A stretch of 64,000 nucleotides of DNA from a virus. Taxonomy: Duplodnaviria > Heunggongvirae > Uroviricota > Caudoviricetes. Positions 39,001 through 42,000 of this stretch are shown one piece after another (position 1 is the stretch's first letter; each line of letters starts with the position of its first letter). Where the stretch lies: the IMG/VR virus record IMGVR_UViG_2718218360_000008, one strand, 5' to 3'. The position numbers are program-made.

Positions 39001-42000
39001 CATTTGATAACGAATGGCATACGCTGGCTTTCCGCTTTGCCGGGAATAACAGCCTTCAGGTGACGCCGGTTATTGATGGTCAGGATGGCACACCGTTCAC
39101 GCTGACGCAGTCACCGGTCAGTGCATTTGCGGCGGATAAACTGCATGTGACAGACATTACCAGGAATGCGACTTACCCGGTGCTGATTGACAGCATTGCG
39201 GTGGAAGTGAACAACGCGGATGCCGCGGCATGATAAAAAAAGCCGCCAGTTGCCTGAGACCTCTGGCGGTGTGAGATTCATGGAGAATCAAGGAAAGATA
39301 CTACCACTTTCGTCATCGGCATTTTTAAATGAAAACTGTTTACTTAGTCAACCATAACGGTAAGAAATTATGACATTTATTCATCAGCTGATGCTGTACT
39401 TCTGTACGGTGGTCTGTGTGCTGTATCTCCTTTCGGGTGGGTACAGGGCCATGCGTGACTTCTGGCGCAGACAGATTGACAAAAGGGCCGCTGAGAAAAT
39501 CAGCGCCAGTCAGTCAGCCGGAAGCAAACCCGAAGAGCCGCTCATTTAGCGGCAACTTTCTTAATCACATCTTTCGACGAGAAAATCCCATGTCAGAAAT
39601 TACATCCCTGGTCACTGCTGAGGCAGTGAAGGAAGTCCTGCGCTCTGAAGAAGTCCGGAGTGCACTGAAACAGAAACTCCGCCAGAATCTTGAGTCGCGT
39701 CTTGATGCAGAAGTGGATGCTATTCTGGATGAACTGCTCGGCGCACCGGCAGTTCCTGAGCCGGAAGGTATCGCGGGTGAGGGGAGTGCTTCAGATAGCG
39801 GTGACCCCACACCGGACAGCGACATGATGATGTAAGCATGCGTCAGGGACCATCGGTGTGTGCCGGTGGTCTTTTTTATTGTTGTGAGCTTCCGGATTGC
39901 GGGAGACGGGGTATGTACCAGATGGAAAAAATCACAACAGGCGTGTCATACACCACGTCAGCGGTGGGAACGGGCTACTGGTTCCTGCAGTTGCTGGACA
40001 GGGTTTCCCCGTCTCAGTGGGCGGCAATAGGCGTGCTGGGGAGTCTGCTGTTTGGGCTGCTGACATATCTGACGAACCTGTATTTCAAAATCAGAGAGGA
40101 CCGGCGTAAGGCGGCACGGGGAGAGTAGGTGATGAACCATGAAGAAATGAATCAGCGCTTCAGTCGTCTGGAAAATGAAATTGCTGAACTGAATAAAAAA
40201 CTGTCGGCGCTGATGCCTTCTGAAGATGAAAAAAAACGCCGCGATGAGCAGTTTGCTGCGTTTGACGATTATTGTCGGAAAGTGATGAGCAGAAATCTCG
40301 CAGAGTGTTTCAGTATTCATAATGATAATTGCAGTGAGCTGGAATGGGAGTGTAACCGGCCATCCTTTGTTGTATCCGGTGATGACGGGAAAATCACCAT
40401 ATCAGAAAATGGAAAAGTAACACTGCCATCGCACCAGCACAGTGAGACGCTCATTGAATTTGCCATTGATTACCTGAAGAACAATAAAAAACAGGGGCTG
40501 ATGCAGCGCATTGGTCGTTGCATGGGGTATCTGCAGGTAGCCGCTGAGATTGAAGCGCTGGCCAGTGGTGCTGATAAGGATGCAATTGTGCGGGAGGCTC
40601 TTCTTCGTAATTTTAATACTCCACCCTTTAAAAAAGTGCCGGCTTACTGGCTTCATCCCGGACTGACTTATCTGAAAGTGCGTATTTAGTGGGCCTGGGA
40701 CAGCGGCTGAATATTTAATATATCCATGAACACAAAAATCAAATACGGCCTGTCGGCTGCCGTTCTGGCGCTGATTGCCGCAGGTGCTTCTGCGCCTGAA
40801 ATTCTCGACCAGTTTCTTGACGAAAAAGAAGGTAACCACACCACGGCATACCGTGATGGTGCGGGTATCTGGACCATCTGCCGTGGAGCCACCCGGGTGG
40901 ATGGTAAGCCTGTTATTCCTGGCATGAAGCTGTCGAAGGGGAAATGCGACCGGGTTAACGCCATTGAGCGTGATAAGGCGCTGGCATGGGTGGAGAAAAA
41001 CATCAAAGTGCCACTGACTGAACCCCAGAAAGCGGGGATCGCGTCATTCTGCCCGTATAACATTGGCCCCGGTAAGTGTTTCCCGTCGACGTTTTATAAA
41101 CGAATTAATGCAGGCGATCGCAGGGGAGCGTGTGAAGCGATTCGCTGGTGGATTAAGGACGGAGGCAGAGACTGCCGTATCCGCTCAAATAATTGCTATG
41201 GTCAGGTATCCCGTCGTGACCAGGAGAGCGCGCTGGCGTGCTGGGGTATCGACAGATAAGCAGAATATTTTGCTGAAAAATGACGTTGGCCAACGCGGAC
41301 GGATAACACGAAATCCTGCGAACTGGCAAAACCTGAGTGAATAAAAGTAAAAACCCCGTTTGTTAGCAGCAGGTGGGGTTTTGTGTTTCCTGACTCCGGA
41401 AAAGTCAAAGGAGAAAGTGTGTTTGATTTTAGCAAACTGATTCGGGAGATTTGAGTGATGGCTGAAAAATTATCTACCTGGAAGTTCATTCTTATCTGGC
41501 TGGTGTTTGTGATTATGGTCTCCGGTTATTTCATCGGTCAGATACGCTGGTGGTGAAATGAACCGCGTACTGTGTGTGGTCATCATTGCCCTGCTGGTGG
41601 CCTGTGGTGCGCTTAGTCTGGGGCTGAATCATTACCGTGATAACGCCATCACCTACAAAGCGCAGCGCGATAAAAAAGCCAGAGAGCTGGAGCTGGCAAA
41701 CGCAACCATTACTGATATGCAGGTGCGCCAGCGCGATGTTGCTGCGCTCGATGCAAAATACTCAAGGGAATTAGCTGATGCGAGAGCTGAAAATGAAACT
41801 CTGCGTGCTGATGTTGCCGCTGGTCGTAAGCGCCTGCGGATCAACGCCACCTGCTCCGGTACCGTGCGTGAAGCCACCGGCACCTCCGGCGTGGATAATG
41901 CAACCGGCCCCCGACTGGCAGACACCGCTGAACGGGATTATTTCATCCTCAGAGAACGGTTGATGACAATGCAGAAGCAGCTGGAAGGGGCACAGGACTA

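Follow-up and report, generated by a model that had tools for sequence, protein, structure and literature searches.

Two accessory genes in the S21/R21-type lysis cassette of a stx-less Escherichia coli lambdoid prophage

The lysis cassette examined here lies in a 64,000-nucleotide (nt) stretch (the window) of the Caudoviricetes record IMGVR_UViG_2718218360_000008. As a whole, it probably represents a frequent form of the S21/R21-type cassette found in E. coli lambdoid (Shiga toxin (Stx)-type) prophages, extended by two accessory genes. The first, orf185, is located between the holin gene S and the endolysin gene R, and we lean towards regarding it as a late-expressed passenger. The second, a small hydrophobic open reading frame (ORF) that abuts the spanin gene Rz, may encode a spanin-linked membrane protein, a tentative proposal. 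The lysis cassettes of Stx-type prophages control both phage and toxin release and their usual description is restricted to S, R and Rz/Rz1. Both additional genes belong to existing, uncharacterised families common in E. coli prophages and the finding is largely ordinary: orf185 is routinely present in the S-R slot and is not a new discovery. The small membrane ORF is a modest lead, as such ORFs are regular in this cassette group, including phage 933W, and usually unannotated. Should it influence the expression of the spanins or the timing of lysis, a well-studied pathway would gain a component, with relevance to engineered lysis cassettes as well.

Organization of the lysis cassette

An initial annotation of the window had described a 185-amino-acid (aa) ORF of lower GC content than its neighbours between an S21-type holin and R, and a 32-aa hydrophobic ORF ending one base before Rz. 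Coordinates, GC contrast (0.450 in orf185, 0.556 in S, 0.541 in R) and the junction with Rz were all reproduced. The elements of the cassette are as follows.

39913-40128, plus strand: S, S21-type class II (pin)holin, 71 aa, N-terminus MYQM (PF04971 "P21 holin S", E 9e-33; phrog_9876)
40129 (GTG) or 40132 (ATG)-40689, plus strand: orf185, ORF of 186 or 185 aa (phrog_1085, E 2e-111)
40726-41259, plus strand: R, lysozyme with an R21-like N-terminus of putative signal-anchor-release (SAR) type (PF00959, E 3e-24; phrog_7)
41260-41349, plus strand: untranslated spacer after R, DNA conserved in E. coli and Salmonella phages, the first ~100 nt common to 933W-type phages too
41350-41391, plus strand: terminator-like hairpin of 15 pairs, AAAACCCCG...GGGGTTTT, then a T-rich tail
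41419-41556, plus strand: conserved 45-codon frame (phrog_6632), GTG start behind GGAGAA, TGA at codon 12 in the window
41455 (GTG) or 41458 (ATG)-41556, plus strand: hydrophobic ORF of 33 or 32 aa (phrog_6632, E 1.6e-19)
41558-42025, plus strand: Rz, i-spanin (PF03245, E 3e-50)
41778-41963, plus strand: Rz1, o-spanin lipoprotein embedded in Rz (PF06085, E 2e-21)

The complete gene order is NanS-p-like esterase, DUF1378, DUF826, S, orf185, R, a 298-nt spacer, Rz with embedded Rz1, and the small terminase. The Prokaryotic Genome Annotation Pipeline (PGAP) names the S product "class II holin family protein". R starts 36 nt past orf185 and lacks an obvious Shine-Dalgarno sequence. Its translated N-terminus is Lys-rich, followed by a Gly/Ala-rich stretch, YGLSAAVLALIAAGASA, and by E35-x8-D44-x5-T50. 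This pattern, compared by eye and with PMC8136144, is read as that of a putative SAR endolysin. The cassette therefore shows the features of an S21/R21-type pinholin and SAR-endolysin cassette: a PF04971 holin, a weakly hydrophobic Gly/Ala-rich R N-terminus, the E-x8-D-x5-T triad and an embedded Rz/Rz1 pair, the SAR character being judged from sequence alone. Over its 2.3 kb it is 100% identical to that of strain NCCP 13894 and 99.7% identical to those of EC4115 and TW14359.

A small membrane ORF abutting Rz

The stop codon of the small ORF ends at 41556 and the Rz ATG lies at 41558, exactly one base further. Alignment of the R-Rz spacer with those of H-19B, Stx2 phages and Salmonella phage SPN3UB revealed that the ORF makes up the 3' portion of a longer, conserved frame of 45 codons, and its phrog_6632 match spans positions 13-45 of 45. 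Codon 12 of this frame (41452-41454) is TGA in the window while most relatives carry CGA, so that only the 32/33-aa form would be made here. The frame is uninterrupted in 16 of the 25 phrog_6632-type loci and carries TGA in the other 9. The ORF past the TGA is intact in two separate allele backgrounds. Its 32-aa product consists of MAEKLSTWK, a predicted transmembrane helix (hydropathy peak 2.1) and RWW, and GGGAG is located 9 nt upstream of the start.

The region is present in 893 of 5426 complete E. coli genomes (~16%), and 45-aa entries labelled "phage protein" or hypothetical are found in the public protein collection for E. coli, E. albertii, E. fergusonii and Salmonella. PGAP left the ORF unannotated in the genome of the window. 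It matches only phrog_6632; neither a Pfam domain nor a holin-family profile was found. Just three residues follow the helix, leaving no room for the periplasmic coiled coil that, with an N-terminal anchor, characterizes i-spanins.

The premise of the initial annotation that canonical cassettes are contiguous does not apply to this phage group between R and Rz, where a hairpin and at least one small membrane ORF are always found, with or without the ant gene. In nearly all R-Rz spacer variants of our locus set a small membrane ORF stops 1-7 nt before the Rz ATG. Three unrelated sequence types occur, each with one predicted membrane helix: phrog_6632, as in the window, phrog_4493/1115, and phrog_4906, as in 933W. 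The 933W representative (locus L091, 4421-4570) is a single-pass membrane ORF of 49 aa (43 aa from an internal Met) located between ant and Rz, with its stop 7 nt before the Rz ATG. It is unannotated in RefSeq, matches phrog_4906 and is identical to XECs191 of strain Sakai, a small gene supported by ribosome profiling (Ribo-seq) and predicted to encode an inner-membrane protein (PMC5597208). XECs191 resembles the small ORF of the window in being a small single-pass membrane ORF that ends a few nt before Rz in the same cassette family, but the two belong to unrelated sequence families (phrog_4906 and phrog_6632). No Ribo-seq entry for the phrog_6632-type ORF was found in the part of the supplementary text of PMC5597208 that was searched. 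Literature searches on the peptide sequences and on the R-Rz gap returned no paper describing a small membrane ORF abutting Rz, and neither the genomics paper on Stx phages nor the survey of spanins that were consulted discusses these genes.

The arrangement of hairpin, Shine-Dalgarno sequence, ORF and a "TGAnATG" junction recurs before the i-spanin in three kinds of cassette. These are the S21 holin, lysozyme and PF03245 Rz cassette of the window, a holin_2_3, lysozyme and PF03245 Rz cassette of Salmonella, and a holin_8, GH19 (glycoside hydrolase family 19) endolysin and DUF2514 spanin cassette of E. fergusonii. The hairpin can be folded from each of nine variants, which come from E. coli, E. 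fergusonii and Salmonella and differ in both arms, and an A-tract on its 5' side makes it a potentially bidirectional terminator. No significant or credible Rfam match was obtained for the spacer and its RNA folding z-score is only -2.2.

In some spacers, small hydrophobic ORFs form tandem sets of two to four (L024 5206-5769; L007 2662-2990). Some of these are paralogue-like (for example ...ISRALAFAIKWVAVGIAV... and ...LIRAMAFAIRIVAIAVLV...), and the final ORF terminates with IRWW immediately before Rz. Their sequences suggest a small family of membrane peptides undergoing expansion.

These observations can be accommodated in the following scheme. R is followed by an untranslated spacer of ~160 nt that includes the terminator-like hairpin. 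Past it, ribosomes would reload at GGAG/GGGAG and synthesize a single-pass inner-membrane peptide of 32-45 aa. Translation of Rz would be coupled to that of the small ORF by termination-reinitiation, the peptide reaching the membrane alongside the i-spanin. The small ORF would then be a spanin-linked membrane protein setting or tuning the synthesis or insertion of Rz/Rz1, which we consider possible and put forward with reserve. Small membrane proteins are reported from lysis cassettes that include a SAR endolysin, examples being the Mu gp25 "releasin", the Lyd proteins of P1 and the S21-71 antiholin (PMC9239132, PMC9025707). The resemblance is in kind only, with no sequence relationship detected by Pfam or PHROG profiles. 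Unlike them, the window-type ORF stays with the spanin gene even beside a GH19 endolysin, which is not of the SAR type, and beside other holins.

A somewhat less probable explanation is that the ORF acts only in cis, as a leader that reloads ribosomes for Rz past the hairpin with an irrelevant peptide product, or that it is inactivated by the TGA in this lineage. The one-nt stop-start junction is consistent with a leader, as is the fact that the last codons of the ORF, CGC TGG TGG TGA (UGG UGG UGA in the RNA), double as the Rz Shine-Dalgarno sequence. The codon-12 TGA and the absence of a clear coding signature in codons 2-13 point in the same direction. However, comparison of E. coli, E. fergusonii and Salmonella copies over codons 14-45 reveals 16-19 changes at third positions but only 2-10 at positions 1 and 2. 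Synonymous sites are saturated while the nonsynonymous rate (dN) is 0.1-0.27, and M14 is invariant. This retention of the amino acids argues for a selected peptide, as do the occurrence at one position of three unrelated types that each encode a single membrane helix and the intact ORF past the TGA in two allele backgrounds.

Returning to a spanin-linked peptide, it could be extended to all three small-ORF types, which would together form an unrecognised component of lambdoid lysis: spanin-associated peptides controlling i-spanin synthesis, insertion or the timing of the last step. We regard this generalization as unlikely. Under it, the CGA/TGA polymorphism at codon 12 would yield natural long and short isoforms.

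orf185, an occupant of the slot between holin and endolysin

Only 3 nt separate the S stop from the orf185 ATG. A Shine-Dalgarno sequence, GGGGAGAG, is located inside the last S codons and serves whichever gene comes next: orf185 in the window, R in 933W and ydfR in the K-12 prophage Qin. The 3' end of S is kept up to its stop in the window, 933W, Qin and Stx2 phage 86 (Stx2-86), and homology ceases exactly there. In a set of 88 related loci, all E. coli-type ones with both neighbours visible have a member of the orf185 family in the slot between holin and R. In most of them the family gene starts 0-4 nt past the S stop and ends 36 nt before R. A scan of species-representative genomes with a narrow pattern retrieved 3 loci only. 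Two main length forms coexist among the loci, ~296 aa with a DUF1327 domain and ~185 aa. DNA similar to orf185 is found in 878 of 5426 complete E. coli genomes (~16%), with at least 80% of its length in 232, and 14 records of sequenced phages match it, which makes it a minority variant among phages.

A search of 5.8 billion proteins retrieved 165 relatives of orf185 (accession WP_001015158.1, annotated "hypothetical"); all those with a named source are from E. coli. Many are "YdfR family/DUF1327" proteins of 287-296 aa whose C-terminal 183 residues are 83-91% identical to orf185, covering 98% of its length. orf185 aligns only to positions 117-296 of the 296 positions of the phrog_1085 profile. 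DUF1327 (PF07041) is absent, the alignment starting past the DUF1327 block, while the Stx2-86 homologue scores 3.7e-45 with this profile. Judged from these alignments, orf185 is the DUF1327-less form of the YdfR family/phrog_1085, that is, the C-terminal two thirds of the ~296-aa proteins. The short forms (185-217 aa) constitute a diverse, separate lineage with a shared start, MNHEEMNQR. No match to orf185 was found in Pfam (E <= 0.01), NCBIfam, PADLOC, PDB or BFVD.

The initial annotation had presented both ORFs as inserted genes. That both are genuine is supported by selection, and for orf185 also by these 165 homologues; as for insertion, the 88 loci, Qin and the 878 genomes indicate that orf185 routinely occupies its slot. 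The ratio of nonsynonymous to synonymous substitution rates (dN/dS) is ~0.25 among 25 distinct short-form sequences, indicating purifying selection and therefore a functional gene. For S, R and Rz, the corresponding values are 0.08, 0.07 and 0.31. ORFs on the minus strand that overlap orf185 (39958-40320 and 40402-40839) were discarded since they have no PHROG match and run counter to the dN/dS signal.

A C-terminal motif, H-x..GRCMG(Y/L)LQ(V/L)AAEIE ... PPFK..P..W..PG..YL, is present in orf185 and its columns are invariant or nearly so across 22 sequences, down to 28% identity. When the Salmonella relatives described below were added to the alignment, the AlphaFold2 model of orf185 reached a mean predicted local distance difference test (pLDDT) score of 82.9; an earlier model from 12 close sequences only was poor (55.6). 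In the model, residues 3-59 form an N-terminal helical hairpin and residues ~75-185 the conserved C-terminal alpha/beta domain, joined by a linker modelled with low confidence (55-71). It resembles no solved structure. orf185 is predicted to be a soluble protein, no membrane segment being predicted. In the database searches, prophage proteins of Escherichia and Salmonella were the only ones seen to carry its C-terminal domain. When 1.84 billion cluster representatives were searched exhaustively with a profile, only 43 clusters were retrieved. Matches to giant proteins with SRCR and HEAT repeats in a representative-protein search were dismissed as repeat artefacts.

The closest described counterpart is YdfR of the K-12 Qin prophage (essQ-ydfR-rrrQ-rzpQ/rzoQ). 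Like orf185 it follows an S21-type holin, by 4 nt, precedes the lysozyme and uses the same Shine-Dalgarno sequence. Unlike orf185 it is 103 aa long and is composed of the DUF1327 domain (PF07041) and one helix only. Residues 1-72 of K-12 YdfR are reported to bind the catalytic half of RNase E, with possible RNA binding (PMC13232886). Binding of RNase E by orf185 was considered and rejected since the region of YdfR responsible, DUF1327, is absent. Closer in sequence are the 268-aa "YdfR family protein" of Stx2-86 (YP_794052), in the same slot and 81% identical over residues 71-185, and a 213-aa hypothetical protein of Stx2_12E129, which occupies the same slot, shares the C-terminal domain and is 79% identical overall. 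Both phages differ from the window by a convergent 104-aa gene (phrog_1853) before R. Stx2-86 differs further by its DUF1327 N-terminal domain and by ant between R and Rz.

In Stx2_499 the S-R slot (L002 2833-3318) encodes a 161-aa protein whose first ~65 residues are shared with orf185 and whose C-terminus is unrelated; a colicin/pyocin DNase domain gives a faint, non-significant Pfam match (E 0.038). Between this gene and R lie about 500 nt without annotation. This marks the slot as a site of domain shuffling.

More distant relatives (28-39% identity) are hypothetical proteins of Salmonella enterica prophages that share the C-terminal motif. Most carry a DUF1327-like N-terminus, and DUF1327-less ones exist too. 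Their genes lie between Q and a PF16080 holin, or else ahead of an S21-type (PF04971) holin, and not between holin and endolysin. Intergenic gaps, and sometimes further genes, set them off from the holin. In both genera the family gene can be followed by the convergent gene of ~104 aa (phrog_1853, no Pfam match), whose E. coli and Salmonella copies are 50% identical. Copies from some Stx phages and a Salmonella prophage are the following.

L001 3486-3800, minus strand: phrog_1853 gene
L003 3085-3399, minus strand: phrog_1853 gene
L101 3807-4124, minus strand: phrog_1853 gene

This association suggests that the YdfR-family gene and phrog_1853 form a mobile two-gene module. The window has no phrog_1853 and retains only part of one gene of the module. 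Salmonella prophages also contain, in either orientation, a HicA/HicB toxin-antitoxin pair that separates Q from the YdfR-family relative (L099 834-1467; L101 2127-2781). PADLOC detected no defence-profile match for orf185 or the small ORF, and chance-level ones only for relatives.

How orf185 is expressed bears on its nature. No promoter-like site was found on the plus strand of the cassette, and both extra ORFs are co-oriented with the late genes. With the Shine-Dalgarno sequence located inside S, this points to expression from the Q-dependent late transcript, ribosomes starting on orf185 from the site buried in the end of S. The suggestion of cargo expressed with the late genes fits orf185 well. 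A promoter and terminator of its own, as expected for a classical moron, do not adjoin it, and it is an in-operon passenger gene instead. Homologous S and R are directly contiguous in 933W, with no gene between them, the family occurs with more than one holin type, and no promoter-like site was found on the strand; orf185 therefore reads as late cargo and not as lysis machinery. On balance we favour a late-expressed passenger with a cytoplasmic target, dispensable for lysis.

The alternative put forward by the initial annotation, a lysis regulator, loses weight for orf185, and the small ORF is the better lysis-related candidate, although an N-terminally truncated allele is present here. In its most specific form, orf185 would be a cytoplasmic regulator of lysis timing that binds the charged C-terminal tail of the S21 pinholin/antiholin in the manner of T4 RIII, which supports the holin-antiholin complex. 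The location of orf185 directly after S, whose internal Shine-Dalgarno sequence it uses, would suit such a role, as would the constant presence of the family between S and R in E. coli-type loci and the helical, soluble character of the model. It is nevertheless quite unlikely: 933W manages with homologous S and R and no such gene, in Salmonella the relatives precede a holin of another class, with gaps and sometimes other genes between, profile searches reveal no similarity to known antiholin or lysis-regulator families, and dN/dS exceeds the values of S and R threefold. The initial annotation had allowed that homologues might reveal a standard, known lysis component; they reveal orf185 to be standard in this slot, but not a known component of lysis.

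That orf185 is a decaying, functionless remnant of a YdfR-family gene, as the loss of DUF1327 (the phrog_1085 match being limited to positions 117-296), the loss of the convergent phrog_1853 partner of Stx2-86, Stx2_12E129 and Salmonella, and the low GC content (0.450, with 0.44 at third codon positions, against 0.524 for the window) could suggest, is highly improbable given its intact frame under purifying selection, the existence of the short forms as a diverse lineage with its own start and of DUF1327-less Salmonella relatives, and its presence over at least 80% of its length in 232 complete genomes.

Points weighing against the proposed explanation

Several observations weigh against a passenger gene combined with a spanin-linked peptide. 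For orf185, the loci were gathered through orf185 homology, which biases the position statistics to E. coli. The gene always adjoins lysis genes and may have a role in lysis timing. Having lost DUF1327 and the partner gene of its relatives, it could be a partly disabled remnant. For the small ORF, the allele of the window carries an in-frame TGA, and codons 2-13 are kept as DNA with dN close to dS, which leaves the start codon uncertain. Conservation of RWW may reflect the ribosome-binding site of Rz instead of the peptide. The "type A" small ORFs pair with quite different Rz N-terminal membrane segments, and no sign of co-variation between small ORF and Rz was observed in the compared loci.

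Prophage context and neighbouring features

The window corresponds to a lambdoid prophage of E. coli O157 type that lacks the stx genes. Three RNA features (36739-37139) take the place of the stx site of Stx phages:

36739-36798: tRNA-like match, annotated as tRNA-Met by PGAP in an identical genome
36884-37076, plus strand: small RNA STnc100 (140 bits)
37078-37139, minus strand: anti-GcvB small RNA AgvB (96.5 bits)

Upstream of S, the DUF1378 gene (39370-39549) encodes a small protein with a predicted hydrophobic N-terminal helix (MTFIHQLMLYFCTVVCVLYLLSGG...), an uncharacterised membrane protein. A second terminator-like hairpin (39845-39874; 13 pairs and a T-tract) is located between DUF826 and the S start. 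Finally, a 93-aa out-of-frame ORF (41063-41344) overlaps the 3' end of R and extends into the spacer. It matches phrog_30041 and phrog_34797, two families of unknown function that probably correspond to ORFs mis-called in deposited phage genomes.

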